The position numbers and the translations under genes were made by a program. A stretch of 63,564 nt of DNA, filler included, from Octopus bimaculoides (taxonomy: Eukaryota), in NCBI RefSeq assembly GCF_001194135.2. It is 6 parts of 6 records of this genome, joined end to end, with 100 filler letters (N's around TTAATTAATTAA, not from the genome) between each part and the next. Parts side by side here need not be neighbours in the genome. Positions count along the whole stretch, not along the records: positions 1 to 13,825 come from NC_068988.1; positions 13,926 to 23,090 come from NC_069006.1; positions 23,191 to 47,999 come from NC_069000.1; 3 more parts are not named here. The stretch is one strand, 5' to 3'. How positions within the stretch are numbered: the first letter of the stretch is position 1; each line of letters begins with the position of its first letter. This document shows, piece by piece, positions 5,138 through 40,229 of the stretch. The notes under the pieces are model-generated. The model was not told the DNA's origin, ran no database searches, and saw nothing but the letters and a program-made list of their open reading frames with translations.

Positions 5138-5544
5138 TTTAATGCACGTACATTATTGACAGACAAGTTACTGTATATATTAGCGTCAGAGGCAGTATTA
5201 ATACCGAGAGGTAATATTTATTCCCGCTTATACGTGGATGTTCTGTTAGAACAAACTTTACTGCCGTAGATACTAAGAAAGAAACCTTCATATAGGCTTT
5301 TGGTGCCGAGTGCACGCTTGCTTCTTTACATTGCAAGCGGGGATATAAATGCCCACCAACTCCAGCACCGAAACCACCAGATCATATGGTTTCGATCTTC
5401 CTCGATCTCATCGGTGATGGACGTTCGACCGCTAGAGATAGCAGAGACTCGTCTCCCCAGTAACGATATATAGAAAATCCGTACCTGAACAGGCACTGGT
5501 GTCCCGATTAGCCCATCCAGAGATAACATCTTTTATGAACGTGC
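5138..5544 (-). mobile_element. Retrozyme-like HHR-bearing non-coding unit (~390 nt)
   Basis: Contains HHR 5374-5420; sequence downstream of the cleavage site aligns by eye with 35576-35770 and 39888-40120. Confidence 0.65.
5374..5420 (-). ncRNA. Type I hammerhead ribozyme (U4C core variant)
   Basis: CCAUCA-CCGAUGA-GAUC(GAGGAA)GAUC-GAAA-CCAUAUGAUC^UGGUGG; stem I 6 bp with 1 GU, stem II 4 bp, AUC cleavage triplet. Confidence 0.8.
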
Positions 5545-5614
5545 TGCATTTAAAAGTACAGTATAAATTGGAGGAAGAGGAGAATCCTCCCAGCGGCAGC
5601 TGGAGAAAATGCTA

Positions 5615-5730
5615 GAATTTATCGACCCCGAAAGGATGAAAGGTAAAGATGACCACAGCAGAATTTGAACTCAGAATGTAAAGACAGATGAAATACCGCT
5701 AAGCATTTCGCCTGGCGTGCTAACGTTTCT
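5615..5730 (-). mobile_element. SINE family A, truncated second monomer of a dimer
   Basis: Body and head lacking the first ~15 nt, directly abutting the tail of 5731-5963. Confidence 0.85.
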
Positions 5731-5963
5731 CATTTCTTTATTGCCCACAAGGGGCTAAACGTAGAGGGGACAAACAAGGACAGACAAAGGGATTAAGTCG
5801 ATTACATCGACCCCAGTGCGTAACTGGTACTTAATTTATCGACCCCGAAAGGATGAAAGGCAAAGTCGACCTCGGCGGAATTTGAACTCAGAACGTAACG
5901 GCAGACGAAATACCGCTAAGCATTTCGCCCGGCGTGCTAACGTTTCTGCCAGCTCGCTGCCTT
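5731..5963 (-). mobile_element. SINE family A, full length (tail type A1)
   Basis: A-box-like TGGCAGAAACGTTAG, B-box GAGTTCAAATTCC, tail ...GGGCAATAAAGAAAT. Confidence 0.92.
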
Positions 5964-6162
5964 CCAGNNNNNNNNNNNNNNNNNNNNNNNNNNNNNNNNN
6001 NNNNNNNNNNNNNNNNNNNNNNNNNNNNNNNNNNNNNNNNNNNNNNNNNNNNNNNNNNNNNNNNNNNNNNNNNNNNNNNNNNNNNNNNNNNNNNNNNNNN
6101 NNNNNNNNNNNNNNNNNNNNNNNNNNNNNNNNNNNNNNNNNNNNNNNNNNNNNNNNNNNNNN

Positions 6163-6360
6163 GGGAACAAACAAGAACAGACGAACGGATTAAGTCGATT
6201 ACATCGACCCCAGTGCGTAACTGGTACTTAATTTATCGACCCCGAAAGGATGAAAGGCAAAGTCGACCTCGGCGGAATTTGAACTCAGAACGTAACGGCA
6301 GATGAAATACCGCTAAGCATTTCGCCCGGCGTGCTAACGTTTCTGCCAGCTCGCTGCCTT
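6163..6360 (-). mobile_element. SINE family A (near duplicate of 5731-5963 across a gap)
   Basis: Almost identical sequence and the same CTTCCAG flank; may be a haplotype or assembly duplicate. Confidence 0.85.
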
Positions 6361-6387
6361 CCAGATTACATATATTGTAATGCAAAT

Positions 6388-6608
6388 GATATTGGCTGCA
6401 AATTTTGGCACAAGGCCAGCAATTTTAGGGATGGGTTAAGTCAATTACATTGACTCCAACGTTCAACTGGTACTTATTTAATAGACACTGAAAGGATAAA
6501 AAGCAAAGCTGACATCGGAGGAATTAGAACTCAGAACGTATAGACGGACGAAATGCCGCCGAGCATTTTTTCCCCGGTGTGCTAACAATTCTGCCAGATC
6601 GCTTCCTT
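6388..6608 (-). mobile_element. SINE family A (tail type A3), older copy
   Basis: Tail complement AAATTTTGGCACAAGGCCAGCAATTT plus body and head. Confidence 0.8.
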
Positions 6609-7132
6609 TGTAAATAACATTGATATAACAAAAGAAAACCACCGGGCAAGAAATGAATGTCTTCCAACCCTCCTGGTCAAAATTTGTGGATGTTTTCTTC
6701 TTTAGACTCAGGGTCCATTTATGACCATTATATCTTACTATCTAACAATTTATCCAGTATTATTTATGCAAACAATATGCGCGTTCTTTGTTTTATTTTT
6801 TTCTAATATTGTAATGTGTTTATTTTTAACAAATTCAGTGATCACGTAGAGACTTCCCCATTGGTTAAGTTTGAGTCAAATGACATTTTCGTTGTTTCTG
6901 TATGTGCAAAGCTGTGTGGTTAAAAACTTCGTTTTGCGACATGATTAGTATTCGATTCCATTGTAGGTCACCTTAGGCATGTCTTTCACTAAAGACCAGG
7001 TTGATTAATATCTTGTGAGAGAGTGAGTGTAATTTAGTTAGCAATAGCTGTGCAGAAGCTCAAAATATGTGCTTGAGTGCACACACACACACACACACAG
7101 ATAGATAGATAGATAGATAGATGTAATTATCT

Positions 7133-7285
7133 TAAGTGCAGGTATGATTGTGTGTAAACAGTTTGCTTCCCAACCATGTGGTTCCGGGTTCAGTCTCATT
7201 GCGTGGCACTTTGGGCAAGTGATTTCTGCTACAGCCTCGAGTCGACTAAAGCTTTGTGAGTGGACTTAGTAGCCGGAAACTGTAA
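7133..7285 (+). mobile_element. SINE family B, 5' half
   Basis: tRNA-like head GGTTCCGGGTTCAGTC and CTTTGGGCAAGTG domain. Confidence 0.75.
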
Positions 7286-7461
7286 TAGTTCGACTCGAAA
7301 GCTTTACCTTAATTTAATTTACTTTAATTTGATTTATACATTTTCTTCTTTCTACACTTATCCTTAATTATTAACCGAAAGACAATTTGTTAATACTAAA
7401 ACTGAAAAGGAAATATTTTGCCTTCAGAACACCAAAGAAAGTAGATTTTATCCATTAATTT

Positions 7462-7606
7462 TTACTTTTATTTGACTCCAGTCATTCTGGGCACCGCCTT
7501 CATACGTTTAGTCGAACAAATCGATCCCAGGAATTGGTGTTTTTTTTTTGTTTTTTTTTAGGTATGGTATATATTCTATCGGTCTCTGTACCGAACCGCT
7601 AAGTTA
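7462..7606 (-). mobile_element. SINE family B, 3' half
   Basis: Complement of TAACTTAGCGGTTCGG...ATAGAAT and tail. Confidence 0.7.
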
Positions 7607-8059
7607 NNNNNNNNNNNNNNNNNNNNNNNNNNNNNNNNNNNNNNNNNNNNNNNNNNNNNNNNNNNNNNNNNNNNNNNNNNNNNNNNNNNNNNNNNNNNNN
7701 NNNNNNNNNNNNNNNNNNNNNNNNNNNNNNNNNNNNNNNNNNNNNNNNNNNNNNNNNNNNNNNNNNNNNNNNNNNNNNNNNNNNNNNNNNNNNNNNNNNN
7801 NNNNNNNNNNNNNNNNNNNNNNNNNNNNNNNNNNNNNNNNNNNNNNNNNNNNNNNNNNNNNNNNNNNNNNNNNNNNNNNNNNNNNNNNNNNNNNNNNNNN
7901 NNNNNNNNNNNNNNNNNNNNNNNNNNNNNNNNNNNNNNNNNNNNNNNNNNNNNNNNNNNNNNNNNNNNNNNNNNNNNNNNNNNNNNNNNNNNNNNNNNNN
8001 NNNNNNNNNNNNNNNNNNNNNNNNNNNNNNNNNNNNNNNNNNNNNNNNNNNNNNNNNNN

Positions 8060-8350
8060 GCTATGTGGTAAGAAGTTTGCTTCCCAGTAGACGGAAACTG
8101 AAAGAAGCCTGTCGAATATATATTATAGGTATATATTTGTCTGTTTGTCCCGTATCACTGCTTAACAACCGTGTTGATGTATTTACATCCCCGTAACCTA
8201 GCTTTTCAGCAAAAGAGATCGATAGCACAAATATCAAGCTTTAAAAAGTAAGTTCTGGAGTCGATTCATTCGACTGAAAATTCTTGAAGGTGGTGCCCCA
8301 GCATGGCCGCAGTCTAATGACTGAAACAAGCAAGAGATAAAAGGTAAAAG
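8060..8350 (+). mobile_element. SINE family B, internally deleted
   Basis: GACGGAAACTGAAAGAAGCC...GGTGCCCCAGCATGGCCGCAGTC. Confidence 0.8.
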
Positions 8351-9096
8351 AAGGTTGTGCGTGCGTGTGTGAACACACGCACATAAACCATTAAAGTCGT
8401 TGCTCTAGCATGGCCGCGATCCATTAACTGAAAACATTAAAAGAAAGGAAAAAGAATTTAGGCCATTTTCTCAGCACATGTCAACAACTCCATGTAAACA
8501 ATTGAGTCAATAGTCAGTCAAACACGTCAGTGTCAACAATTTAATCTCGATAAACAGGAATATGTTCTATAATTGTAGCTTTCATTAATGGCCCTGTCAT
8601 GTTTTTCACCCTGTTGTTTCAGCTTCTAAACATCAAGGGAAAAAGAAAACAAAAATCAACCGAACCATTGCTGCTGCTGCTTCTGCTGCTGCTGCTTCTG
8701 CTGCTGACACTACAATTGTCATTATAGAGACAAATCTTTCGGTTTATCATTATTTGTTACCTTACCTCCCTCTCCTCTCTATGTGCGCGCGTTTGCGTGC
8801 ATATATATATATATATGTATATATATATAAATTTATACAGAGAAAGAGAGAATGAGAATGTGAGTGTGTGTATGTGTACATGAGAATATATAGAATATAT
8901 ATAAATTATATTTCATAATGCTGAGACAACTTTGTTGTTGTGCTCAGAATTTTGCTGATAGAGTTGTTTTTCCCATCATTTACACACACATACACACACT
9001 CACTCACACACACACATGCACACGCTCAAACACATACATATATATGTATGTGTGTGTGTGTGTGTATGTATGCTTGTATGTAGGCATATGCAATTT

Positions 9097-9262
9097 TACT
9101 CTTTTACTTCCTTCAATCATTGGACTGCGGCCATACAAGAAAACCGGCTTGAAGGGTTCTTCAAACAAATTGACACCAGTACATATTTTAAGTTTAGTAT
9201 TCTTGTGCCTAATCGCCAAGTTACGAGGATGTAAATGAAGCAACACCGGTTTGAAGCGCTGT
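9097..9262 (-). mobile_element. SINE family B, 3' half
   Basis: TTTTACTCTTTTACTT...GACTGCGGCCAT. Confidence 0.7.
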
Positions 9263-9646
9263 GGGAGAAACAGAAAGACATGCACATAGATAGTTAGACA
9301 GACAGACAGACATATAGATAAATGCGCTTATTCTGCAATACAATGGTAACAGAAAACCATAAACCAGCACCATGCTTCCCCTTGACCAGTACCTTAGTGT
9401 TTCTCTAGTCCAAATATTAGTGTACAAATGCAAGGGTGAGTTGTGTGTTTTACAATGTCATCACGGTTTCTCGCCGCATCCCCTGTCTTTAAAAAACACA
9501 GACGGACAATCCTGTAGGCTTTGCTGTGTAGGATGGCGCATACTTCTTGTCATGCATCAGATGAGGCCTTTTCCAGATGCACGTCTGAAGGTAAACAAAA
9601 ATCCTCCACTATTTTAAGCATTCATAATTATATGAATGTATAATTT

Positions 9647-9810
9647 AGGCGCCGGAGTGGCTGTGTGGTAAGTAGCTTGCTTTCCAACCACATGGTTCCA
9701 GGTTCATTCCCACTGCGTGGCACCTTGGACAAATGTCTTCTACTATAGCCTCGGGCTGAACAAAGCCTTGTGAGTGGATTTGGTAGATAGAAGCTGAAAG
9801 AAGCTCGTCG

Positions 9811-9865
<55 letters not shown>

Positions 9866-9875
9866 NNNNNNNNNN

Positions 9876-9924
<49 letters not shown>

Positions 9925-10112
9925 TCCCACCATCGCTTGACAACTGATGTTGGTGTGTTTACGTCCCCGTCACTTAGCGGTTCGGCAAAAGAGACCGATA
10001 GAATAAGTACTAGGCTTACAAAGAATAAGTTCTGGGGTCGATTTGTTGGACTAAAAGGGCGGCGCTCCAGCATGGCCACAGTCAAATGACTGAAACAAGT
10101 AAAAGAATAAAA
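9647..10112 (+). mobile_element. SINE family B, full length with internal (TA)n(TG)n
   Basis: Head GGAGTGGCTGTGTGGTAAG, B-box, internal microsatellite, AAAAG-type tail. Confidence 0.92.
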
Positions 10113-12487
10113 TAATACGAGTGTCTCCGTTATCAGTTCTAAAGTATATTCTTTATGCAAGCGAAGACTATGTAGCTTGACATAATTATGCGAAGTCACT
10201 TGTTTCTGCAAAAACTTTCACGTAAAGCTTTTCTGCTGCACTTGTGACATTGGAGAAACTGCCGTCTTAAAAAATACTTTTAATAATTACAATGATTTGT
10301 TTTCTTACCATAATGGTGATGGGTAAGGAAACATTACAGGAGCAAATAGCAGAAACGATGAAGGTTTACATAGAATAGAGTGTAGAAAATCATAAAAACC
10401 AACAATATGAAAGAAAAGAAAGATTCCTTTTAGGTAGCAGTTATCTGAGTTAAATAAAGTAACTCCACAATTCCAGGCTTACCCTTACTGCATTGGGTAA
10501 ATGACCTCCTCCAGCTGTCATTTTCTGGTCTTCTGCTGAACTGAAGCCAGATTTTTTACTCACCGTTTCTAATTTCCACGAATGAAGCGAAGGTTACTGC
10601 TGAAGGCGAGGATCTGCACTTTCCCAACTACATAACCAACGGCAAGCACATCAGGCTCTTTACTAGCAGCTTGACCAAAATCTTAAACTCTACGCTCAGC
10701 CAAAAAAATATCAATAATGTTTCTCGCATTCTTTTTTAACACTACATCTCAACTGTTGTCATTGACATTTTGCACTACCTCATGTCTTCCGCCGTGTGTT
10801 TCGTTAGGCTGTTAACATCGGCACTAAGATCCACCACTGCTTGATGTCCATCGTTTGCTCCAAACAACTGAACAAAGTGCCGCTGGGAAGCCGCATACAC
10901 ATGTCAGTAATTGAATAATACACGTTTGTGCAGCTTCATCAAAGACTGTGTTATTGCTTTGTTGCTATGTCACACATCGCTTCTGCGGTATGGATCCATA
11001 GAAATGCTTTCATTTTCTAGTGCATTAGAGCACAAGACTTATGTCTGACAAAGCAACCATCGCGTTAAAGAAATAGGTGAAGACTATTATTGCCGCTAGA
11101 ATGTCGGTTGCTATGTCTTTCCTAAGCGTCTTTTCTGACTTATTCAGTAATTATTTCTCTACTTCTCGCTACTTCTTTGCTGAGTCCTATCGATTCTCCT
11201 CTAATCGTCCACTTCAGAGCACGCTGCCATCGAATGTTGACAGTCGTCCCCGAAAACTACTGCTGAACGAATTCGCTAAATAAGTCACTGAAGACTTTAC
11301 GCAGAGAGACCCTGTCGTTCAGCTTCCACTAGCCGGGCCCCTATCTAAACGTTCTATGTAGGTTAACTGACTGACCACACATTTCTGGTTTGTGTAAGCA
11401 GTCTCCTTGAAAATGTAGACATGTGACACTATTTCTATCCGCTGACCAAACAAATTGGTTTATCTAGATACGATTTGGGTCATCTGACGGAGTCGCTCCA
11501 TGTCCATATTATAGAAATCCTGTTAACAGAAATAAGAAATAGAAATCCTGTTAATAACTATAAGGCAGTCGGAATTGTTTAAGTATGTCAGTGAGGTTTA
11601 CACACCCGCATCTTATCAGCTAATGCCACACAATCTCAGCAGGAGACTAAAATGCCATTCGTTTTTCACTAGTGTCAGAGAGTGGGGCGTTCCAAAGAAC
11701 ACTTCTAGACACTTGAAGTAATCCGACGTGTACCAGTACTCCGAAGAAACATAGCCTTTGCTGCTGCTCACGCCCAGCAGCAGCAACAACTTTTAGTCCG
11801 CGACCGGGAAGATCACCTTCACATCAGGATCCATACAGATCTTGTATATCGATACTTGATATGGGTCAGACATAAAGACACATCCATCGCGTAGCCGTCG
11901 AATATATGCATAAATACATGTCTCTCCAAACACTATGATGTGTCAATCTCATGTTTAGAAGTCCTCAGCTGTTCAACTGCCAACTTAAAGAAATCAGAAA
12001 AATAAAAAGGATCCTCTACTAAAACATTTAAAAAAGACATTAGATAAACTCTTAACGACGAGACCGGACCAGCCAACCATTTAAACATACACACATAGAA
12101 GAGCAGCTGCTGCAAACTCAATCATTAAATATCTTCCAACTATAAAGCGACAACAGAATTGAAAGAAAATAAATTAAGGTGGTGCTCCAGCTTGGCTGCA
12201 GTCCTACTACTGAAATCGCTGAAAGAATAAAATCCCGCTGATAGGTACCACAACTGTATATATTGTCCTGTAGCCTTGTCTAAGACAACCTTAGGCCAAG
12301 TACATTCAAACATCCTACTCTGAGTTTGTCATACTTGCCGGAGAAAGATAAAGGCAATCTAATCTTCTCAGTACTGGAAAAGAGGATCCTTTGAAAGGTC
12401 TTTCAAAAATTTCTTCGCTGTCCTTTTTTTTCCCCCCGAAGTAGTTCCCATATCATAATGGTATTTTGATATGAATGTCATGTAGAT

Positions 12488-14629: not shown

Positions 14630-15870
14630 ATACTTAGATAAACTTTCACCAGAATTGGCCCAGGCCATGATTAACTTAATAGCAACACGTAGAAAAGATA
14701 TTTAATGATGTCTCATATTACAGTCATTCTTTGGGCACCACAGGCCATTCGAATAACGAGTTAGTAGGTGGCTTATTTGGAATTTGTTGAAGATATTCAT
14801 CCAGGAACCATCTGGATGTTAAGAGATCTTTTTCTTCTCTAATCTGTCTTAGCATGACGTTAAAGAGAGCAGGGCCAGTTGAGGGGATTTAGTTCTGTCT
14901 TAGTGTTGGGATGGGACACAAGCATGATTTTTGTAGAGGACGGATAGCATGGGGACCAAGCGTTGGATGAACTTTAAATCTGGTGCCTACATCAGTTGGG
15001 TTATGCTGTTGGATCATCTTTCACATCATACAAATGATATAGTGCTCAAGGAGGGAATAAAGTTGGGGCTTCTTAAGACGATCGAAATAATCTAGGCCTG
15101 TCATGATATCTATTTTTTTTTTCTTCTTTTATGATTGATCTCTGGACTGCTTCAATTTTTATAATATTTTGTTTCATGTAGGGAAACCACAACGGTATTC
15201 AAGGTGAGAACGGGCGAAGGTAGAGAAGAGAAGGATAATGGTAGGAGTGTCTCTAGACCCAAAAGTCCTGAGCTTTGAAAAGCGCCCCCTGCGGGCCATG
15301 TCGACTATGTTGTTTCTGTGGGCACCCCAGCTAAAGTTGCTATCGACAGTTACTCCTAGGTCCCTAGAAGTGTTTGATGCCACGAGGTTTTCCCCCGAGG
15401 GAAGAGTGTATGGTAGTTTAAGTGTAGCCTCTTTACCAAAGTGGATTAATTCGAATTTATTCTCGTTTAGCTACGTTTTGTGCTTATCGGGCCATCAAAT
15501 AACAGCAAACAGGTCCGATTGGAAATTAGTTCGGTCTCCTGTTCTATTGACGAGCTTCAGAGGCGTAGAATCATCCGCGAAAATCTAATGTTGATGAGTT
15601 CGATGACGTCAGCGGTGTCATTGGTATAAATAGGAAAAGGAGTGACCCCAATACAGTCGTTTGTGGGACTCCACTGATGATTCTTGCCGAGCTTGATCGA
15701 ATATCATCGATTACCACATGCTGGATTCCGTTCACCAGAAAACTCTCAATCCCCTTCAATAGTTTCCCTCGGACTCCAGTGTTTGATAGTTTCTTTAACA
15801 GGGTGTTGTGGTCAACCTTGTCGAAGGCTTTGCTGAAGTCGAGATAGATGACATTTGCACTGATGATCTA
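14630..15870 (-). pseudogene. 5'-truncated CR1-group LINE; reverse transcriptase and C-terminal region, disrupted
   Basis: VIYLDFSKAFDKVDH, SGVPQTTVLGSLLF, FADD, RDLGVTVD, RSHLEY, IEAVQR, GPALFN motifs with stops and frameshifts. Confidence 0.9.
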
Positions 15871-16170: not shown

Positions 16171-16462
16171 GAAGCATAACAGTAGCAATAATAATAAAAA
16201 TGATAATAATAATAGTATGTGTGTGTATCTACCTATATATATATATATATATATACAAACACACACGCATCCACACATACACACACACACGCATACACAC
16301 ATATATATAATGTGCTTCCCCAAAATAAGACAGGGCTTATATTAATTTTCACCCCGAAATGACCCTTAGGGCTTATGTTCAGGGGCGTTCATATTTTTTT
16401 CATGTACCGAAAAGCGATATTACGAAATAGAAAGTTACGAAATTACTAAATAAACAGAAATT

Positions 16463-16678
16463 CTTTTCTTCTCTAAGCACAAGGCCCGAAATTTTGGGGG
16501 ATGTGTGGGCCAGTCGATAAGATCGACCCCAGTACACAGCTGGTACTTAATTTATTGACCCCCGAAAGGATGAAAGGCAAAGTCGATCTCGACGGAATTT
16601 GAACTCAGAACATAAACACAGACGAAATACCGCTAAGCATTTCGCCCGGCGTGCCAACGTTTCTGCCAGCTCACCACC
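16463..16678 (-). mobile_element. SINE family A (tail A2) nested in the pogo element
   Basis: 20-bp TSD TTACTAAATAAA(C/G)AGAAATT at 16443-16462 and 16679-16698. Confidence 0.92.
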
Positions 16679-16766: not shown

Positions 16767-18056
16767 TTATTCAAAAATAATCATGTCATCGTCCTCTGGA
16801 ATATCATTGTTCTGCAAATCACCGATTCTAAAATTCCTGCGGAGTTTTCGTGTGACTCCATTTCCTGCAGAACTTTCGTCCCCAATCTCTCATGTCGATC
16901 AACAGAGGTCTCATTGAATGAGAAGTTCTTATCCAGGCAGCCTACTCGTAGTGCATTGCCAACACAGCTGTCTGTGATTTTGTTTCATGAATTCTTCACC
17001 CAAGACACGATCTCTTGCAGGCTGGGTTTCACAAAATTTCCACGCTGATTTCTCATCATTCTGTTTTCAATGTAGTCATTGATTTCCACGCGTAAATGGT
17101 CCTTGACTGGTTTATTTATTGCAATGTCAGGAGCCTGGAGATAGGCAGTCATTCCTGCAGGAATCATGATTTGATCTATTCTTCTTTCTGTACGGAAGTT
17201 CTTCATGTCTTTTGCGCGGTGCGTGCTGGCTAAAAGCCAGACTACCAGACCTCTTTGGCCTCCTCGCAAAATAAGTGGCAGCATGAAATCTATCCATTTC
17301 CTTAAAACTGCCTGTGTACACCATGCCTTTTCAGTTTCCACAACACAGATGCCTGAAACGCGTTCAATTTCATCCTTCCTGCCTTTAGTGATGATTAGAG
17401 GTGAGGTTTACTTCCATTGAGACGAACTGCCAAAATACATGTAACTCGTGCACTTTCGTAACCAGTGGAGGGAATGTAGATTGATGACGCAGCCCTTTGA
17501 TCGATTGTTGATTGAGATCCTTGGCCCATGAATACTGCGGTTTCATGTTGGAGAGACAGTATTTAGAAAAGTCTATCCCATCAACAAAGGACTTAAATGC
17601 AAGTGCACATTTAATAATCTGCGTATCTTCCAATTTGAACAATGTTGTCGGCCATCTCAGAGAAAGTTCATGTCGCTGAAGGAAGCCATCCAGCCAGTGT
17701 TTTGAAACTTTGAATTCTTCTGGAAATATACCAAACTGTGGTGCATTTGCAACGGCAAATGCTTGAATATCAGTCCTGCGAACAACCGAAGCCTTTGTTC
17801 TCTCGTCAGCAACCCATTCATAGATGACGTCTTCCAGCTCAGAAAATGGTGGTCGCCGACCTAATCCACACTTGCGTTTCTTTGCATTTCTCTCATCCAC
17901 TTCTTGACTGAGTTTATCGTAGTCTACTCGCCATTTTCAAAACATTCGGAGATTCAAATTCTTTTCTTTGCAGAAAACAGTAAGATTCTTGCCCAGAGAT
18001 TCCTCCATGATTCCTTTCTAGTATTCGATGGAATATCTCCTTCTTCTTGCATTCAT
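16767..18056 (-). pseudogene. pogo-type transposase (CENP-B-like HTH + DDE_1), inactivated
   Basis: GRRPPFSELEDVIYEWV, FKVSKHWLDGFLQRHELSLR, KAWCTQ, IPAGMTAYLQAPDIAINKPVKDHLR; several stops and frameshifts. Confidence 0.9.
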
Positions 18057-20199: not shown

Positions 20200-20625
20200 C
20201 CGTTCATGGGTGGGGAGTATTGTAATCTCTGTCCCTTATATGCCATGGAAAACGGGTTAACCTGCAAGCCTTCTGAGTCCCGTGATTCGTGAAATATCCT
20301 GCGGTTCTATATTTTTGAGATGAGGAATTATGTGCATTATTGACAATGGACGAATAGGTATCCTCACCTTGTTTGTTGTTACCACAACGTTTCGGCTGAT
20401 GTATTCTCCAGCCTTCATCAGGTGTCCCGGTGGAATTTCGAACCCAACCCTTTATTTGACTAATGGGGTACACTGTTCTCAATCCTAAGGTATTTTTTGG
20501 TTGATGTTATCATTATTTATTCAAGTCACTGCCTGGGATTGAACCCAGAATCTTGGTCAGTGGTTAAGAACGTGGGCTTCTAACGCCAAGATTCCGGGTT
20601 CAACCTCAGGCAGTGACTTGAATAA
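20200..20625 (-). mobile_element. Penelope-associated repeat with minimal HHR and terminal hairpin
   Basis: CTGATGAAGGC...GCCGAAACGTTG signature; 40-bp inverted arms at 20517-20625. Confidence 0.55.
20383..20424 (-). ncRNA. Minimal (Penelope-type) hammerhead ribozyme
   Basis: CAC-CUGAUGA-A-GGCUG(10 nt)CAGCC-GAAA-CGUU^GUG; palindromic AACGUU replaces stem III; stem I only 3 bp. Confidence 0.65.
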
Positions 20626-20723
20626 ATCCGCCTTACTATTCTCTTCTGCAACATTCTAATCCCATGTCTGAAGTACAAGAGCTGTGACTTCTTAATGCGG
20701 AAATGTAGCGGCTCAGCCTAGAC

Positions 20724-21721: not shown

Positions 21722-21868
21722 TTCAAATTTTAGCACAAGGCTAGCAATTTCGGCACAAATCGTCCCCTAGAGGATGAAAGACAAAATCGACCTCGGCGGA
21801 ATTTGAACTCACAACCTAGAGACGGACGAAATGCCGCTAAACATTTTGTCAGGTATGCTAACGATTCT
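21722..21868 (-). mobile_element. SINE family A (tail A3), head-truncated second monomer
   Basis: Abuts the tail of 21869-22102. Confidence 0.8.
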
Positions 21869-22102
21869 TATTTCTTTATTGCCCACAAGGGGCTAAACAT
21901 AGAGGGGACAAACAAGGACAGACAAAGGGATTAAGTAGATTACATCGACCCCAGTGCGTAACTGGTACTTATTTAATCGACAGGATGAAAGGATGAAAGG
22001 CAAAGTTGACCTCGACAGAATTTGAACTCAGAACGTAGCGGCAGACGAAATACCGCTAAGCATTTCGCCCGGCGTGCTGACGATTCTGCCAGCTCACCGC
22101 TT
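21869..22102 (-). mobile_element. SINE family A full length (tail A1)
   Basis: Head, B-box, body and tail recognisable. Confidence 0.9.
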
Positions 22103-22119
22103 GAGGATGTATAAAAATT

Positions 22120-22336
22120 AATATTGGTTTCAAATTTTGGCACAAAGCCAGCAAGTTCGGGGGCTACTCGATTACATCAACCCCAGTGTTCAATTGGTAT
22201 TTATTTTATCGATCTTGAAAGAATAAAAAGCAACAGCCGACCTCAGCGGAACTTGAACTCACGACCTAGACACAGACGAAATGCCGCTAAACATTTTGCC
22301 CGGTGTGCTAACGATTCTGCCAGCTCGCCGCCTTAA
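22120..22336 (-). mobile_element. SINE family A (tail A3)
   Basis: CCAGCTCGCCGCCTTAA 5' end; TTTCAAATTTTGGCACAAAGCC tail complement. Confidence 0.88.
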
Positions 22337-23210: not shown

Positions 23211-23372
23211 TCTGAGTGGTTGGCGTTAGGAAGGGCATCCAGCTGTAGAAACTCTGCCAAATTAGATTGGAGCCTGGTGTTGCCATCCGGTTTCACCAGT
23301 CCTCAGTCAAATCGTCTAACCCATGTTAGCATGGAAAGCGGACGTTAAACGATGATGATGATGATGATGATA
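23211..23372 (+). mobile_element. Family D retroposon 3' end with (GAT)n tail
   Basis: AAAAGCACCCACTACACTC...GGTTGGCGTTAGGAAGGGCATCCAGCTG...GGACGTTAAACGATGATG. Confidence 0.85.
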
Positions 23373-23672
23373 TATATATATATATATATATATACATACC
23401 GGAGTAAGCACATGAAATGTGCAACAAGGTGGAAAAAAGAGTACTCAAATACCAGAGGTAGAGTAATATGCTTTATTTAAAAGCAGCAGAAATATAACAA
23501 AAGTCTGTTACTCTGAGTTTCACGTTCCCGTTCATCGGACAGTTTTGTTATATATATATATATACATATATATATATACACACACACACATACTGTATAT
23601 ACTTATATATGCAGCTGTTTTTATATATATTTATATATGTATGTATATGTATATATATCTATCTATCTATCT

Positions 23673-24041
23673 ATCCGGATACGTTCGTGCTGCTGGTCGT
23701 GGTGAGAGGGATAACTCCCTTGGCAAACAGGACACAGTCGTGTGTCGATAAGCCAGCTGGAGGAGATGTCCTCCTGGGGCTAAAAGCAACAGTAACATCC
23801 ACCCCTAGGGGTCAGCCACACTTAAGTGGCAATATACTACACTTTATCGTGCAGTTACTGTTAATACTTCATTTAGAGAATTAACATTGCTTGTTTTCAC
23901 CTTTTCAATATCAGTGAAGAATGTCACTGGAAAAGAAGATATAAGATTTTGCCAGGTTTTTCTCTCTCACCAAGGTCATCAGCTGTCGAACGCCGAAGAA
24001 GGGAAATAACCCTGAAATCCGGATACGTTCGTGCTGCTGGT
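23673..24041 (+). mobile_element. Retrozyme-like tandem unit, period 344 nt
   Basis: 25-nt direct repeat ATCCGGATACGTTCGTGCTGCTGGT at 23673 and 24017; complete HHR at the junction; followed by a 330-N gap. Confidence 0.8.
23987..24031 (+). ncRNA. Type I hammerhead ribozyme (U4C core variant)
   Basis: CGAACG-CCGAAGA-AGGG(AAAUAA)CCCU-GAAA-UCCGGAUA^CGUUCG; stem I 6 bp, stem II 4 bp, palindromic stem III AUCCGGAU. Confidence 0.85.
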
Positions 24042-31595: not shown

Positions 31596-31830
31596 AAGGC
31601 TGTGAGCTGGCAGAAATGTTAGTACACCGGGCAAAATGCTTAGCAGTATTTTGTCTGCCGTTACGTTCTGAGTTCAAATACCACCGAGGTTGACTTTGCC
31701 TTTCATCCTTTCGGGGTCGATAAATTAAGTACCAGTTACATACTGGGGTCAATGTAATCGATTTAATCCCCTTGTCTGTCCTTGTTTGTCCCCTCTATGT
31801 TTAGCCCCTTGTGGGCAATAAAGAAATAAG
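31596..31830 (+). mobile_element. SINE family A full length (tail A1)
   Basis: AAGGCTGTGAGCTGGCAG...GGGCAATAAAGAAATAAG. Confidence 0.9.
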
Positions 31831-32028
31831 AAATGTTAGCACGCCGGGCAAAATGCTTAGCGGTATTTCATCTGTCTTTATGTTCTGAGTTCGAATTCTG
31901 CCGAGGTCAACTTTGCCTTTCATCCTTTCAAAGTCAATAAAGTAAGTACCAGTTGCGTACTGGGTTCGATCTAACCAACTGGCCCCCTCCCCCAAAATTT
32001 CAGGCCTTGTGCTTAGAGTAGAAAAGAA
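31831..32028 (+). mobile_element. SINE family A (tail A2), head-truncated second monomer
   Basis: Starts AAATGTTAGCACG; ends GTAGAAAAG. Confidence 0.88.
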
Positions 32029-32844
32029 TATACTGTGCATGTGTAGACCTGTCAAGCCAAGTGAGATCGTTGTTGTGATAAATGCTGGTGTTACATAACT
32101 GGAACCTGTCCAGGTGGCATGTAAAAAGCACCCACTACACTCTTGGAATGGTTGGCATTAGGAAGGGCATCCAACTGTAGAAGCCATATCAAATCAGATT
32201 GGAACATGGTGTAGCTCCACAGCTTACCAGTTTTCAGTCAAACCGTCCAATCCATACCAGCATGGAAAACAGACGTTAAATGACAATGATGAATAGTCAG
32301 GCATCATCAATGATGTAAGTTGTATATCAGTTAGATTTCATAACTGTATGGATATTATTCCTGTGGGACAGGAGTGTTCATTATAAATTAGAAAACAGAC
32401 TCTTTGAGGCAATAATAATTATTGCTACAAAGAAGTTTTGGTTTGAGCACCACTGCAGTCCATATTTATGAGATGTTGACAAGTGAATTTTCAATCTATT
32501 TTTGGAGATGATGATCAAGTGTTGTAAAAATATATCCTGGCGTGTACTGTTGTTAATTAATTTATTACATTTGTTCTTGTTTCTCATCGTCACCACCACC
32601 ACCACCGCCACCGCCACCGCCACCGTCATCATCATCGTCATCGTCATCGTCATTGTCACCACCACTACCACTACCACCACCACCACCACCACCACCACCG
32701 CTGCTGCTGCTGCTGCTACTACCATCATCATCATCATTGCCACCATTACCACTACCACTACCACTACCACTACCGCTACCACCACCACTGCCCCCTTCCC
32801 CATCATCATCATCATAATCTCATGACCACTATCATCATCACTAT

Positions 32845-32988
32845 CATTATTATTACATCTAACATACTCAGCTTGTTGCTGGAAGTGTCATTAATGTTCC
32901 AGCTGTCCGATTCCCATGAACTAAAGTGGTACGTTCTTTTCAAGTCCCGAGAACTTTGTGGAGACTCCTTGCACTGCCAAGTAATTCT
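32845..32988 (-). mobile_element. Extreme 3' end of an R4/Dong-like LINE within (AAT)n
   Basis: LLGSARSLHKVLGT* resembles the LLGTARILRKVL C-terminus; flanked by AAT-type repeats. Confidence 0.45.
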
Positions 32989-32996
32989 ATTATTAC

Positions 32997-33042
<46 letters not shown>

Positions 33043-33479
33043 GTTATTGTTGTTGTTGTTGTTGTTGCTGTTGATGTTGTTGTTGTTGTTGTTGTTGCTG
33101 TTGTTATCACAGACTGATATATGCTGCCTGCCAGCAATTTTGCTGAATAGTGGGTGAATATGGCAAGTGCAGTCTGAGAAGAATGGTCTTATTCTCACTA
33201 TGTGCCTACAGGATGGAAAGCACTGCAGAGAGTGAGTGAGAGAGAGAGAAAGAGAGAGATAGCTCTTGCCCCTAGCTATAACAGTAATTCAGCAGTAATT
33301 CAGGTTCCCTGATTGAGCCCAGGTGGTTGTCCCCCATTGTTAAAATCTCTCATTAGGTCCCTTTTGAATATCATTAGTTTTCCATGCCTGATTTTGTTTT
33401 CCATAATTGATTTTGCCTAAATGCCCTCTATTCGGATAATTTATACTTAAAATATCCTGTTTTCCGTTGCAAAGTAGAA

Positions 33480-33870
33480 GTGTTGAACAAAATACTTGGT
33501 AGCATATCTTCTGGATCTTTATGATCTGAGTTCAAATCCTGCTGAGGTCAACTTGGTCTTTCACCCTTCTGGAGTTGACGTAATCGACTAAACCCCTCCG
33601 TCAAAAATTGCTGAGCTTATGCCAAAATTTGAAATAATTATTATTAATATTATTATTGCTGGCAGAATCATTAGTGTGTCAGTTAAAATGCTAAGCACCG
33701 AATCTTCTGTGTTTTTTTATGTTCTAAGTTCGAATTCTGCAGAGGTCAGCTTTGCATTTCATCCTTCAGGAATCGATAAAATAAAATACCAGTCATGTCC
33801 TTGAGTTGATGAAATTGACTAATTCTCTCCCTCTAAAATTGCTGTCCTTGTGCCAAAATTTGAAACAAGT
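33480..33870 (+). mobile_element. Two degenerate SINE family A copies (tail A3)
   Basis: GAGTTCAAATCC / AAGTTCGAATTC B-boxes; GCCAAAATTTGAAA tails. Confidence 0.75.
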
Positions 33871-34171
33871 TGGAAGGATGAAATATACCTGTGATTAAAT
33901 ATGGGTGCAGCAGAAAGGTTGCCCCAATTTCGATGGTTAATAAAAAGCAAACACATGAAGATACAAGAAAAAAATGATGCTCTCCACTCCAGGCCACGGT
34001 GGGTACTATCTAAAACAGAAAAAAATGTGGCATTTAATGAACTTCATAGAAATACAAAGTTTTTTCATACGTCTTCATGTGTTTGTTTTTTATTAACCTT
34101 TGAAATTGGGGCAACCTTTCTGCCACACCCTGTATTTGTGCATCATTAAATGGGCAAAAAAACAACAACAC

Positions 34172-34583
34172 AGTGGCTGTGTGGTAAGTAGCTTGCTTAC
34201 CAACCACATGGTTCCGGGTTCATTCCCACTGTGTGGTACCTTGGGCAAGTGTCATCTACTATAGCCTCGGGCTGACCAAAGCCTTGTGAGTGGATTTGGT
34301 AGATGGAAACTGAAAGAAGCCCGTCGTATATATGTATATATACATGTGTGTGTGTATGTTTGTGTGTCTGTGTTTGTCCCTTGAAAATTGCTTGACAACC
34401 GATGCTGGTGTGTTTACGTCCCCGTAACTTAGCGGTTCGGCGAAAGAGGCCGATAGAATAAGTACTAGGCTTCCAAAGAATTAGTCCTGGGGTCAATTTG
34501 CTCGACTAAAGGCGGTGCTCCAGCATGGCCGCAGTCAAATGACTGAAACATGTAAAAGAGAAAAGAGAAAAGAGAAAGAGAAA
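34172..34583 (+). mobile_element. SINE family B full length
   Basis: Head, internal TA/TG tract, (AAAAGAG)n tail. Confidence 0.92.
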
Positions 34584-34775
34584 GACATTGGGTATAGTGA
34601 ATGAAGATCAATAGCTAGTTGTGACTATTGTGTCACAGTATAGATAGTACTTTGTCAAAATGGACTTGCCAGAAGGCCACAGAACCATATTGGAACTATG
34701 CCCAGTGGAAAGTACTGAGAAAGAGAGCATGAGGTTGGTCAGAGTAAAACATACTTCAGAGTTGAAAATCTAGAA

Positions 34776-35060
34776 CAGGGGTTTTCAAACTGTGGTCCGC
34801 GGACCACAAGGGGTCCGCAAGGACAAGACAGGGAGTCCGTGGAAAGCTAAGACAGGGGTCCGTGCAAAGCCAAGTAAACACATCCTTCTCACTAAGTATG
34901 TATTAAAAAAATCCTGTGTGTATAATTGACAATAAACCTATTTGTTAAATACTGTTAAATAAATGTTATTTTAAGCAAATATTTATGTATAAATTTCATA
35001 AGCATTTGTAAAGCCTGAAAGGTAAAGGGGTCCGCAAGTCAAAAAGTTTGAAACCCCCTG
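34776..35060. mobile_element. hAT/Charlie MITE (second family)
   Basis: TIRs CAGGGGTTTTCAAAC / GTTTGAAACCCCCTG; perfect TSD ATCTAGAA. Confidence 0.92.
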
Positions 35061-35207
35061 ATCTAGAAGAACTGAGAAGACTAAGTAAAAACAAAGAAAG
35101 CAAAATGATGAAAATTAACATCAGAAAAATCAACATCAACAACAGGTCCCAGTTTCCAGAGCACCAGCAACCATAATTCTGGGGATAACAAAGAAAGTAT
35201 CTTTAAG

Positions 35208-35800
35208 TTAGGAAACTAGTCTGTTATAAATCCATGTTCAAGATAGAAGCAGTATATGAACCAAAGGTAGTGTTTATCCTCATTTTAATGTGGGTGTTCA
35301 CTAAAAGACAACGATACTGCAACTTTAACCCCAGGAAGACATCTCCAGCTGGTTTATTTAGTGTGCTTTCCGCACTCAATATTTATTGCAAGTGGGAGAT
35401 AACTCCTGCCATCCGAGCAATAAATATCGAGATTTTCTAATGGACTAGTTTCCTAATTACAAAATCAGTGGTTGTATGACACTGTATTTTCTGTATCTTG
35501 CAAGCGAGGTTAAATTACTGCCATGCTTAGCAAATGAGTGCCCCCCACTGAAGAGATCCAATAAGATTGAAATTATGGGGTGTAGTGGTCTCAAAGCTAG
35601 GATGGCAGGAGTTATCACCCACTTGCAATAAATATTGTGTGCAGAAAGAGCACTGAATAAAACCAGCTGGATGATATGTATTCTTGGGGTTAAAATTGCA
35701 GTATCGTTGTCTATTACAGGACACCCACGTTAAAGTGAAGATAAACACTACATTATCTTTAGGCTTATTATCATAAATAAATAAGCAAGTTTCTCTTCTA
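35208..35800. mobile_element. Head-to-head pair of retrozyme-like units (partial minus copy plus ~355-nt plus copy)
   Basis: 35264-35415 is the reverse complement of ~35600-35752; HHR at 35543; body homologous to the units at 5138, 23673 and 39847. Confidence 0.7.
35543..35580 (+). ncRNA. Minimal type I hammerhead ribozyme
   Basis: CCCCA-CUGAAGA-GAUC(CAAUAA)GAUU-GAAA-UUA^UGGGG; canonical core, stem I 5 bp, stem II 4 bp with 1 GU. Confidence 0.8.
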
Positions 35801-36584
35801 ACAGCAACAACATGTAGTATCATACTTTCATCGTGTTACAAAGGAGAAATAATTACAGACGAAAATTCCCAAATACTTGGTGAAATTACAAAGGGAAAAA
35901 AGAGAGAAAAAAACCTCAGAGAATGAAGACTCAATATTAAACAATGAAAAATGATGAGAAAACCTGGCCAGTCTTACACTGCCATTAGGTCAAATGTGAA
36001 ACCATCTAACAATCTTTTTAACCTCCACAGCTACATCGGTATCCAAAGACTGATGTATCTCTACCTATTCTTTTGACATATTTTTCACTTATAGATTTCG
36101 GTATCTATTGGCAACAGGATATGCTTCAAAACTGCCTTCTATTTGATTAAGCTTTTGTTTTCTTTTTCTTTTTTTTTTATCTATTCCTCAGGAATTCATT
36201 TTACAAATAGACAGGCTGGTAAGCAGACAGATGTTTGTCAGGAAAACATCAATCAAAACTAGCTAGCCTATGTATATAGTGCAACTGCTCTGAAGCTCCA
36301 AGACCTCTCAAGCTTCTGTCAATAATTTCAAGATTCTAGTCACCTACAATGCGCTACTAATGGAAATAGTCTTGATACTGTGGTGAATATGTTTTCACAT
36401 AAAAGGCATATCTATCATAAGTAATACTTGGTTGTTTTTATTTTACTCAATTTAGTAATTAGGTTTGGCCAAATGATTAAGATGCTTGTTGCACAGCCAT
36501 AAATTTTTGGGTTCCACTCCACAACGTTAAGTATAGGGAAAGTACGAGCTTCTATGATCTTTGGTTGTTGAGTCTCAAGGAGGT

Positions 36585-37030
36585 GATGACAAGTGACTGA
36601 GACTTCTGGCGGTTTGCTGTGCTTGAGATAACACATTGTGACAGTGACACGTAAAAGGCACCTGTGCTGATGACATGTAAAAGATACCCATGCTGGTGAC
36701 ATGTAAAAGGGCACCTGTACCAGTGACACATAAAAGACACTCATGCCAGTGACACGTAATAAGCACCCATGCTAGTGACATGTAAAAGAGTACACGTGCC
36801 AGTGGCATGTAAAAGGCACCTGTGCCAATGACATGTAAGAGGCACCTGTGCCAGTGATACATAATAGGTACCCATCCCAGCAAAACATAAAAAGGACACC
36901 TGTGCTGGAGACACATAAAAGGATACTTGTGCTGGTGACATGCAAACCACACTTAGTACACTCAGTAGAGTGGTTGGCATCAGGAAGGGCATCCAGCTGT
37001 AGAAACCAAGTTAAAACAGACTGGAGCCTA
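36585..37030 (+). mobile_element. Family D retroposon with ~30-bp tandem array (GTGACATGTAAAAGGCACCTGTGCCA-like)
   Basis: About 10 degenerate units followed by GGTTGGCATCAGGAAGGGCATCCAGCTG. Confidence 0.75.
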
Positions 37031-37044
37031 GTGCATATATCCAT

Positions 37045-37228
37045 ACACGTCTGCCGTTACGTTCTGAGTTCAAATTCCGCCGAGGTCGACTTTGCATTTC
37101 ATCCTTTCGGGATCGATAAATTAAGTACCAGTTATGCACAGGGGTCGATGTAATCAACTTAACCCCTTTGTCTGCCCTTGTTTGTCCCCTCTATGTTTAG
37201 CCCCTTGTGGGCAATAAAGAAATAAGAA
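37045..37228 (+). mobile_element. SINE family A (tail A1), 5' truncated
   Basis: B-box, body and tail. Confidence 0.9.
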
Positions 37229-37523
37229 ACTGTATGGAAGCTCATCATGAAAGCTTCTGATACATTGCATTTTTTGAAAGGGTTATTTTGAAGTACAAGA
37301 GTCTGAGAAGTACTGAGCCATTTACTTACTAACTTCAATGAGCAGGGAATTCAGTTAATCCAACAACTGAAGTACTCACAGTTAAAGACCAGGGCAGGAT
37401 CTGACTTACTTTTACCCAAGTTGGCGAAACTAGTCAAGTTAGATGCTACGTGTATAGTCATGCACCATCCTACAATAGTTCAAGCACCTTAAAATCATTT
37501 ATTAATACAGCTGCACACACATG

Positions 37524-37568
<45 letters not shown>

Positions 37569-37577
37569 GTTCTAAAT

Positions 37578-37855
37578 CAGGGGTTTTCAAACTTTTTGAC
37601 TTGCAGACCCCTTTATATTTCAGGCTTTACCTTAGGGACCCCCTTATACATAAACATTTGCTTAAAATAACATATATTTTTACATTTATTTATTTAACAG
37701 TATTTAACAAATAGGTTTATTGTCAATTAAAAGATTTCGATTAAAAAACATATATAAAATCAAATTGCCCATAAAAAGTATTTGCTGTCCACGGACCCCC
37801 TGTCTTGTTCTTGCGGACCCCCTGTGGTCTGCGGACCACAGTTTGAAAACCCCTG
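37578..37855. mobile_element. hAT/Charlie MITE, same family as 34776-35060 in opposite orientation
   Basis: TIRs CAGGGGTTTTCAAAC / GTTTGAAAACCCCTG; perfect TSD TTCTAAAT. Confidence 0.92.
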
Positions 37856-38364
37856 TTCTAAATCATGCATGCATACGCATGTTTACATACTCATGTACGT
37901 GTATTTACATGCATACATGTATACGCAACAACAACACTATGCTAATAAATAATGCTATAACAAACTGAGATGGGTGGGAGGAAGAAGACGGAGGATGAAG
38001 ATGATGGCGATGGTGGTGATGACGATGGTGGTGATGACGATGATGATAATGATAATGACAACGACGGCGAAGGCAAGGAGGGGAGGAGGAGGAGGAGGGG
38101 AAAAGAAGAAGAAACAACTTTATCATTTTAGTAATTAAGTCAAACTGTGGAAGCTGAGCAGTTTCTCTAATTTCTCGATGCTTATATATGCATATGTATG
38201 TCTCTCTCTTATTGTCTCTTTGGGTTTCTTTCTCTCTACATAAATACATACATACATTAATATGCACACACATACACATATGTATATATATATGTGTGTA
38301 TGGATATATGTATGTACGAGGGGAAGTCAAAAATTATCCACACTTTCGCCATGACATATCTCTT

Positions 38365-38748
38365 TTACTCTTTTACTCTTTTACTTGTTTCAGTCATTAG
38401 ACTGCGGCCATGCTGGAGCACCACCTTTTGTCAAGCAAATCGACTTATTCTAGTACTTATTCTATCGGTCTCTTTTGCCGAACTGCTAAGTTACGGAGAC
38501 GTAAACACACCAGCATCGGTTGTCAAGCGATGGTGGTGGGACAAACACAGACGCACAAACACACACATATATATATACATATACATATATACGATGGGCT
38601 TCTTTCAGTTTCCATCTACCAAATCCACTCACAAGGTTTTGGTCGGCCCAAGGCTATAGTAGAAGACACTTGCCCAAAGTGCGATGCAGTGGGACTGAAC
38701 CCGGAACCATGTGGTTGGTAAGCAAGCTACTTACCACACAGCCACTCC
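38365..38748 (-). mobile_element. SINE family B full length
   Basis: Complement of head, body and (TTTTACTC)n tail. Confidence 0.92.
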
Positions 38749-38953
38749 TGGTCACACTGCCTTGTACACATGCATGCTTATAGTTGGTACTATTGTGTTC
38801 ACGTGATACAAGTTTGAGCCTGATCGAGCCATTTTTCTTTCTGGCTTTACACTGTAAAGCCAGAAAGGTCACTCCACTAGCAATTCATATATGTATATAT
38901 TTATATGCAAACACACATATACATGTATGTAAGTATCTATTTATACATGTGTG

Positions 38954-39012
<59 letters not shown>

Positions 39013-39269
39013 TTTATTATTATGCACAGAGAAATTAGGGAAACCACTCAGCTTCTACAATTTGACTTAATTACTAAAATGATAAAGCTGTTTCTTCTTC
39101 TTTTCCTCCTCCTCCTCCTCCTTGCCGTCGTCGTCATCGTCGTCATTGTCGTTGTCATCGTTATCATCATCATCACCACCAACACCGCCACCACCATCGT
39201 CATCATCCATTTTCTTCCTCCTCCAACCCATTTCAGTTTGTTATATCATTATTTATTTGCATAACGTTG

Positions 39270-39700
39270 TTGTTGTTTAACCCTCGATCAACCTTGATTG
39301 ATAGACTTATGATCCAAGAGCTTCCAATCATGGCCACCCCATCGTTTTCTCTCTACAAAGAACCCATGATTACATTATCCATTATATTAAGGCGACGAGC
39401 TGGCAGAAACGTTAGCATGCCGGGCAAAATGCTTAGCGGTATTTCAACTGTCTTTATGTTCTGAGTTCAAATTCCGCTGAGGTCAACTTTGCCTTTAATC
39501 CTTTCGAGGTTGATAAGTTAAGTACCAGTTGTGTATTGGGTCGGTCTAATCGACTGGCCCCCTCCCCCAAAATTTTGGGCCTTGTACCTAGAGTAGGAAA
39601 GATTATTCATTATATTCCTTTTAAGACATTAATGTGTGATTTGAAGAAAGCTTTACTACTTTTTCTAGCATTTCAAGTGACCACACATAAGCTTCCCCAT
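39270..39700 (-). mobile_element. Family E repeat interrupted by a SINE
   Basis: TTGTTGTTTAACCC tail complement; TTAAGACATTAATGTGTGATTTGA. Confidence 0.6.
39389..39601 (+). mobile_element. SINE family A (tail A2)
   Basis: 15-bp TSD ATTAT(C/T)CATTATATT at 39374-39388 and 39602-39616. Confidence 0.92.
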
Positions 39701-39846
39701 TAGCTTGATTGGTTTCCTCTATAATATTATGTTCTTTGGCATTTTGTACAGCTGTTGTTGCTTCAACTCAGGTCAGCTCTTGGACATTGGCTGTTCTTTC
39801 TAGTATACTGATACTTGTAGAAGCACCTGTATTAACATATTTTTTA

Positions 39847-39894
39847 TATATTACCGAAGAAGTCCAGCAGACTGAAATCACTTGATTTGGTAGA
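39847..39894 (+). ncRNA. Type I hammerhead ribozyme, partly decayed (U4C)
   Basis: UAUUA-CCGAAGA-AGUC(CAGCA)GACU-GAAA-UCACUUGAUU^UGGUA; stem I has 2 GU pairs. Confidence 0.7.
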
Positions 39895-40179
39895 TTTTGG
39901 TGCCTATAATGGATGATTCTCATCTGCTACGATATTTGTCTGTCCTTTTATGCATCATGCATCTCTATGAGAGGATCTCATAATGCTAATGTCACGGTAT
40001 TCAGCGTTCTTACAAGACAGCCACATTAAATTGGGTATAAAGATTTCCTTTTGGTGCTAATATAGATGCCGTCACGCATAATTATTTTTCAATAAACTTG
40101 CTGGCTATTTGTGACTGGAAAGACACTAATATTCTACATACTGTGTCAGTGAGATTTGGCTGATATGAGGCCACTGGAT

Positions 40180-40229
40180 ACCTGCCACTGAAGAAGTCCA
40201 GTAGACTGAAATCACCTGATCTGGCAGGT
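40180..40229 (+). ncRNA. Type I hammerhead ribozyme, canonical
   Basis: ACCUGCCA-CUGAAGA-AGUC(CAGUA)GACU-GAAA-UCACCUGAUC^UGGCAGGU; stem I 8 bp, stem II 4 bp, AUC triplet. Confidence 0.9.

Follow-up and report, generated by a model that had tools for sequence, protein, structure and literature searches.

Diverged short repeats with type I hammerheads and a CCGA core, probably non-LTR retrozymes, in Octopus bimaculoides

Animal non-LTR retrozymes (LTR, long terminal repeat) were defined by Cervera and de la Pena (2020, PMC7229834), with units of 350-390 bp in mussel, 330/350 bp in axolotl and 220-240 bp in coral; the accessible part of that main text mentions neither octopus nor cephalopods. 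An earlier paper (Cervera and de la Pena 2014, PMC4209133) describes hammerhead families full of compensatory changes, with palindromic helix III and weak cleavage as dimers. For Penelope and retrozyme hammerheads alike, the literature already documents compensatory changes and a palindromic helix III (PMC4209133, PMC7229834), and paired stems across diverged families are an expected trait of an established class. A further study derives retrozymes from Penelope pseudo-LTRs, with no mollusc sampled and one of nine dimers cleaved (10.64898/2026.07.22.740005). In giant squid, 235 Rfam hammerhead matches have been reported (PMC6962438). Here we describe type I hammerhead motifs in a 63,564-nucleotide stretch of Octopus bimaculoides DNA (assembly GCF_001194135.2), called the window below, which consists of gappy, microsatellite-rich animal sequence.

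The window probably holds several subfamilies of mobile, non-coding repeats of ~335-345 bp that carry type I hammerheads, among them a very abundant family whose normal state at core position 4 is C and not U (C4). These repeats are read as non-LTR retrozymes, most likely non-autonomous Penelope-like offshoots, because they occur as tandem units, because one inverted copy is 5'-truncated and because insertions lie in microsatellites. Eight type I hammerheads (HH1, HH2, HH3, HH4, HH4b, HH5, HH6 and HH8) were found with a descriptor that specified the core C[U/C]GANGA, a stem I of at least 4 and a stem II of at least 3 pairs, applied no palindrome filter, and received its C4 option only after matches had been seen. 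Local dinucleotide shuffling gave a mean of 0.025 matches (maximum 1 in 200 shuffles); with the canonical core alone there were four matches against 0.015 in shuffles, and the control cores CAGA and CGGA gave none in the window. By the descriptor and by core-anchored pairing, three helices surround the core in type I order and position H17 is not G. The canonical CUGANGA...GAAA...UH core is present in HH3, HH4, HH5 and HH6, and C4, a rare variant known from nature, in HH1, HH2, HH4b and HH8.

Four of the motifs (HH1-HH4) had been put forward in the original prediction. All four are present where it placed them, and its stem I (CCAUCA/UGGUGG, CGAACG/CGUUCG and CCCCA/UGGGG included) and stem II pairings (GAUC/GAUC, AGGG/CCCU, GAUC/GAUU, AGUC/GACU) match the sequence exactly; the non-canonical CCGA core (U4C) of HH1 and HH2 had gone unmentioned. 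HH1 (5374-5420, minus strand) has the core CCGAUGA and a 10-nt near-palindrome as helix III, with predicted cleavage after C17 at 5380. HH2 (23987-24031, plus strand) reads CCGAAGA in the window and CCGACGA in most copies of its family; its helix III is a perfect 8-nt palindrome and cleavage is predicted after A17 at 24025 on the plus strand. HH3 (35543-35580, plus) has the core CUGAAGA and a helix III that is down to AUU. The AAUU proposed earlier for this helix takes in core A14, and the correct reading A15.1-U-U16.1 leaves 3 nt, one base below the published 4-nt minimum; the HH3 ribozyme is probably decayed. HH4 (40180-40229, plus), in the second unit of an array, combines the core CUGAAGA with an 8-bp stem I and a helix III of AUC/GAU around ACCU.

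Five hammerheads come in addition to these four. HH4b (39849-39892, plus) belongs to the first unit of the HH4 array, with the core CCGAAGA and a stem I eroded to G-U pairs. HH5 (50991-51057, plus; canonical core, long stem II) and HH8 (23505-23542, minus; core CCGAUGA) are type I motifs of a second family, and HH6 (54626-54687, minus) has the core CUGACGA, a perfect 10-nt palindromic helix III and a flank unlike the others. HH7 (~20383-20425, minus), which fails the descriptor and was recognised by eye from the sequence, is a minimal hammerhead of Penelope type with an extra base after A9, ACGU as helix III, a short stem I and an unrelated flank; its layout matches examples in the supplement of PMC4209133. 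Adjoining it at 20515-20627 is an inverted repeat with 42-nt arms that are 93% complementary.

Rfam gave no match at its gathering threshold for any motif. The scores with Hammerhead_HH9 were 26.6 bits for HH4 and 21.5 bits for HH1 (gathering 52), the HH2 region had no hammerhead match in Rfam at all, and no other kind of ribozyme came up there or in the HH1 region. An Rfam scan of the whole window by E-value was discarded, as the matches listed (150 of 602) are microRNA-like artefacts of microsatellites; a long, degenerate ACAT/ACGT-rich satellite at 58500-63564 is the source of many such false matches.

Kinship was assessed on the 230 bases that follow each ribozyme on its 3' side, with the ribozyme letters left out and 300 shuffles per comparison. 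The flanks of HH1, HH3, HH4, HH4b and HH4c (the third unit of the HH4 array) show links of z 4.4-12.8 (0-1 of 300 shuffles), the HH1 flank (5145..5373, minus) being homologous to those of HH3, HH4 and HH4b at z 7.8-12.8. HH2 joins via HH3 (z 12.0), its direct z values being 1.0 to HH1 and 2.4 to HH4. Identity between subfamilies is 35-54%. On sequence comparison, HH1-HH4 are thus members of one diverged superfamily of ~335-345 bp repeats. The original prediction had called the hammerheads related; it is flank homology that bears this out, with HH2 tied in only through HH3. HH5 and HH8 (z 7.7) make up the second family, and the flanks of HH6 and HH7 are each unrelated to the rest. A profile trained on six flanks recovered these six and the arm of an inverted copy at HH3 and nothing further in the window; two of these seven flanks have no ribozyme, which was lost by truncation or deletion. 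Where it is retained, the ribozyme occupies an equal place relative to the homologous flank. RNAalifold found no second conserved structure in the common flank (-0.65 kcal/mol). The block at 23751-23832 in the middle of the HH2 unit is common to sister subfamilies at ~80-85% identity, with divergence upstream, and the depth of the RNA-like run X17 peaks there. A search of metagenomes with the exact HH2 pattern and a search of viral contigs each gave no match. A degenerate flank pattern matched 11 metagenome loci over the pattern only, with no hammerhead, and these were set aside as chance.

The original prediction also held that ribozyme structure was under selection while the subfamilies diverged. 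In a pairing test anchored on the core alone (five stem I and four stem II pairs in four motifs, 36 cells), pairing was kept in all 36 cells of HH1-HH4, against 65 of 108 cells in chimeras that join the 5' strand of one motif to the 3' strand of another. When motifs were compared in pairs, both bases differed in 28 cells and one base in 5, while 21 cells were unchanged and none was broken. Motifs chosen for pairing always look compensated, so these paired stems are partly a selection effect. A structure-pair count over five motifs (92.5% paired, double changes in eight pairs, 0 of 500 shuffles, 23-37% in slid controls) was given little weight because its motifs had been selected for pairing and the 3' half of HH3 is out of register in the alignment. 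Less circular evidence comes from helix III, whose inner bases a monomer cannot pair and the descriptor did not require: complementarity was seen in 8 of 10 cases, against an expectation of 0.38 (p 0.009). Across thousands of copies of the HH2 family, only two positions of the 45-nt ribozyme vary at a level of at least 4%, both structure-neutral: the free position N7 (72% in the DNA run X4, 82% in run X8) and a stem I change from A-U to G-U (19% in X4). The flank register, the inner palindrome pairs and the HH2 variant sites are each modest and jointly make selection on the fold likely. The stems have indeed changed on both sides across real divergence, as predicted, whereas the argument from four motifs was partly circular and the independent evidence for selection is modest.

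The anatomy of the elements agrees with a retrozyme range of 150-450 bp, as there is one type I hammerhead per tandem unit and the periods are 344 and 334 bp. The HH2 repeat unit (23673..24041, plus), 344 bp long, comes from a tandem family of very high copy number, and the same 25 bases stand at its two ends. It lies between microsatellites and is followed by a 330-base gap, and the insertion is therefore about two units long. The unit starts 6-9 bases upstream of the predicted cleavage site, from which we infer a template that spanned the cut site, as a multimer or circle would. Its RNA is highly self-paired (fold z -5.9, 0 of 100 shuffles); the old HH4b unit is not (z -1.0). HH4b, HH4 and HH4c form an old trimer with a 334-bp period, in which HH4b is 71% identical to the next unit and HH4c (40895..41150, plus) has lost the 5' half of its ribozyme. 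HH4c lies beyond a later insertion of ~400 bp (40430-40855) that splits the array and whose repeat family also occurs near 23214-23360, 32142-32292 and 36640-37030. At HH3, a forward copy slightly above unit length (~35434-35798, plus) has directly 5' of it an inverted, 5'-truncated copy without ribozyme (35199..35424, minus). The HH8 element (~23398-23550) is ~150 bp long and sits between (TA)n tracts, and microsatellites flank the HH2, HH5 and HH8 loci. Frames within the units had no Pfam match, in line with a lack of protein coding capacity.

The abundance of the HH2 family was apparent from contigs of public sequencing runs; run X18 is putatively RNA, and X8 may be DNA or RNA. At least 88% of the unit's words occurred in 19 of the 24 runs listed, under two organism codes. 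In X4, from which the DNA of the window may derive, 11,597 contigs fell on the 369-base HH2 unit, and contigs pass from the unit end back into the unit start, i.e., through head-to-tail joints. One X18 contig of 374 bases (344 + 30) is a closed cycle, as arises from a circle or from tandem DNA alike. A second X18 contig (record 9, 23750-23883, depth 2) had 26 differences, and 18 of the 19 listed are A>G on the ribozyme strand. At most 1.5% of X4 is changed at these sites. U or A stands 5' of 16 of the 18 edited adenosines and of 9 of 27 unedited ones (p 0.0003), and a low-depth X8 contig has four of the sites in common. In the fold of the unit, editing did not favour paired positions (0.32 at edited and 0.40 at unedited sites), and no preference for a 3' G was seen. 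A cluster of A>G changes with such a 5' neighbour bias is the signature of ADAR hyper-editing. The pattern, from one contig without matched DNA, is a hint of ADAR-like editing.

C4 occurs in four of the eight descriptor motifs, in three branches of the main superfamily (HH1, HH2, HH4b) and in the second family (HH8). Position 23994, the C4 of the 344-bp family, had no variant of at least 4% in any of four runs; therefore C4, as judged from the sequences, is the state of this family and not decay. The C4 ribozyme is probably slow. When changes were counted by hand on the flank tree, an ancestral C4 needed two and an ancestral U4 three. Both changes under ancestral C4 are C-to-T at CpG, and the sequence is CpG-poor (observed/expected 0.59), which is only suggestive of C4 as the ancestral state. 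A further-reaching account is conceivable, which we put forward tentatively: C4 would be ancestral in several subfamilies of animal, probably cephalopod, CCGA-core retrozymes; U4 would be CpG decay; the ribozyme would be slow, dimer-dependent and active; the 344-bp core would be locked in a monomer circle and freed in the dimer; and the sense RNA would be hyper-edited by ADAR. Locking of the C4 core against the palindrome was dropped as a general account, as it is predicted in HH2 and absent in HH1, HH4b and HH8. In HH1 (5364-5397, minus) and HH4b (39870-39905, plus), an alternative, inactive hairpin can form between the GAAA/helix III segment and bases just 3' of stem I. No report of a C4 repeat family turned up in a superficial survey of the mainly open-access hammerhead literature on octopus, cephalopods and U4C; the work of Lunse et al. 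on Penelope hammerheads that cleave as dimers may contain such variants.

Past the DNA anatomy, every step of the mechanism is one that we infer. By analogy with the published class, the tandem units would be transcribed, and two hammerheads would pair through their palindromic helix III. The hammerheads are predicted to cut the RNA to unit length, and the unit RNA might be circularised by a host ligase. A Penelope reverse transcriptase/endonuclease acting in trans would then copy the RNA back, often into microsatellites. Stems would have stayed paired through subfamily divergence since no master copy could do without the fold. By their energies, HH2, HH1, HH6 and HH8 should form helix III as dimers; for HH2, the duplex is worth -10.9 kcal/mol and the monomer stem costs 2.8. 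The dimeric cleavage expected from the palindromic stem III thus agrees with the energies for HH1 and HH2, but HH4 does not need it: its monomer can close a helix III of 3 bp and could also fold alone.

Several points weigh against the retrozyme reading. In Xenopus, eight of nine predicted retrozyme dimers stayed uncleaved (10.64898/2026.07.22.740005), U4C lowers in vitro activity in a viroid (PMC3088659), and single changes in the CUGA turn had low activity in a mutational scan (PMC9901934). In the predicted fold of the circular HH2 monomer, the palindrome binds C3-C4-G5, and the local minimum fold of HH1 and HH4b is not a hammerhead. Only five ribozymes are homologous, the two neutral variants (two of two) are weak evidence when taken alone, and the closed X18 cycle fits tandem DNA equally well. 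No partner Penelope reverse transcriptase or GIY-YIG was found in 110 of the 208 candidate frames of the window, and a target-site duplication was not clear at any of four loci, microsatellite flanks being apt to hide such duplications. Alternatively, each unit may be what 5' truncation left of an autonomous Penelope-like element, its 3' end (pseudo-LTR), and not a separate retrozyme. Long palindromic helices III in Penelope hammerheads of Aedes and Drosophila willistoni (supplement of PMC4209133), the inverted 5'-truncated copy at HH3, the microsatellite sites and the Penelope layout of HH7 all speak for this. Yet in the same 110 frames, no reverse transcriptase or GIY-YIG lies beside any motif, HH1-HH4 do not have the extra base after A9 of Penelope minimal motifs, and the HH2 unit joins itself head to tail, with no contig entering unlike sequence in X4 and X8 (a weak point, repeat contigs being short). 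We consider this origin unlikely.

Slightly less likely again is that the C4 repeats behave like satellites and their ribozyme is dead, selection on the fold having acted in an ancestor with U4 and the later spread having needed no cleavage. The damage done by U4C in vitro (PMC3088659, PMC9901934) and the predicted sequestering of the core in the HH2 circle would be expected of such repeats, as would the low depth at the ribozyme in RNA-like runs, and Naiad elements are known to spread without canonical hammerheads (PMC8557442). This account has to cope with C4 in three branches (HH1, HH2, HH4b) whose stems are different yet fully paired, and in a second family (HH8); with the hand count on the flank tree, which favours a C4 ancestor; and with U4C viroid variants that remain infectious (PMC3088659). 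The possibility that the motifs arose by chance and seem compensated through the choice of those that pair has a negligible probability. It could appeal to the selection of the four motifs by pairing and to Rfam gathering scores that none of them reached. The shuffle test refutes it, since no shuffle of 200 equalled the eight matches, so that the original prediction was right to argue against chance and shuffled sequence does not give a similar motif density; the empty CAGA/CGGA controls and the fixed position of the motifs relative to homologous flanks point the same way. Non-autonomous, Penelope-like retrozymes remain our preferred reading.

The window contains further repeats and relics of mobile elements. 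A dispersed repeat of ~200 bp with 73-94% identity occurs at 5616-5960, at 6163-6365 and in at least 10 further places, e.g., 16462-16664, 21759-22318, 31612-32031, 37050-37230 and 39405-39600. It resembles a tRNA-derived short interspersed element; ARAGORN found no tRNA in it. A broken Tc5/pogo-type transposase (HTH_Tnp_Tc5 + DDE_1) lies at 16988-17936 on the minus strand. Its relatives, 62-78% identical, come from octopus, bat, lizards and spider (Octopus vulgaris in 3 of 20 homologues), a spread that may reflect horizontal transfer. Far from every hammerhead, a reverse transcriptase fragment at 15574-15867 (minus; RVT_1, E 2.6e-5, below the curated cut-off) is probably a relic of a long interspersed element. 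Interstitial TTAGGG-like arrays are found at 1088-1156 and 55547-55699. An open frame at 53157-53579 (plus), without a Pfam match, has a Cys/His motif that presumably resembles those of Helitron-like proteins.

A very abundant family with a consensus off the CUGA turn, a turn thought to be nearly invariant, is what these repeats add to the known picture. If the CCGA-core lineage is real, standard CUGA descriptors miss whole families and animal hammerhead counts are underestimates. If C4 cleaves, the natural hammerhead core is wider than assumed and descriptor searches overlook whole retrozyme families; if it does not, such elements amplify without cleavage, which bears on the role of hammerheads in Penelope-like elements. 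The family-wide C4 core and the hint of editing are a notable variant within a known class.

Like the animal non-LTR retrozymes of PMC7229834, the octopus repeats are arrayed in tandem and non-coding, with a unit length of 334-344 bp, a single type I hammerhead per unit, a stem I of ~6 bp, a stem II of 4 bp, a GC content below 50%, a strongly self-paired unit and very many copies; the octopus units are known from sequence, while circular RNA and cleavage belong to the published class. They differ from those retrozymes in the CCGA core of the main family, the 8-10 nt palindrome of helix III, the A10.1-U11.1 pair of HH2 and HH4, and the target-site duplication, which was not found here. With the Penelope pseudo-LTR hammerheads (PMC4209133) they share a palindromic helix III (10 nt in Aedes) and many families per genome with compensatory changes, and with Penelope-like elements in general (Craig et al. 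2021, PMC8557442) inverted 5'-truncated copies, here at HH3, and microsatellite sites. Unlike the pseudo-LTR hammerheads, HH1-HH4 have neither the extra base after A9 nor a long stem II, and the autonomous Penelope architecture, with a reverse transcriptase and GIY-YIG frame between pseudo-LTRs, did not adjoin them in the 110 of 208 window frames covered. The 56 aligned examples compared from the supplement of PMC4209133 all have CUGA or UUGA and none has the CCGA found here. The closest counterpart of the core change is the identical U4C of a viroid (PMC3088659); there it is a rare variant of an RNA pathogen, whereas in the octopus it is the majority state of a large genomic family and is present in several subfamilies.

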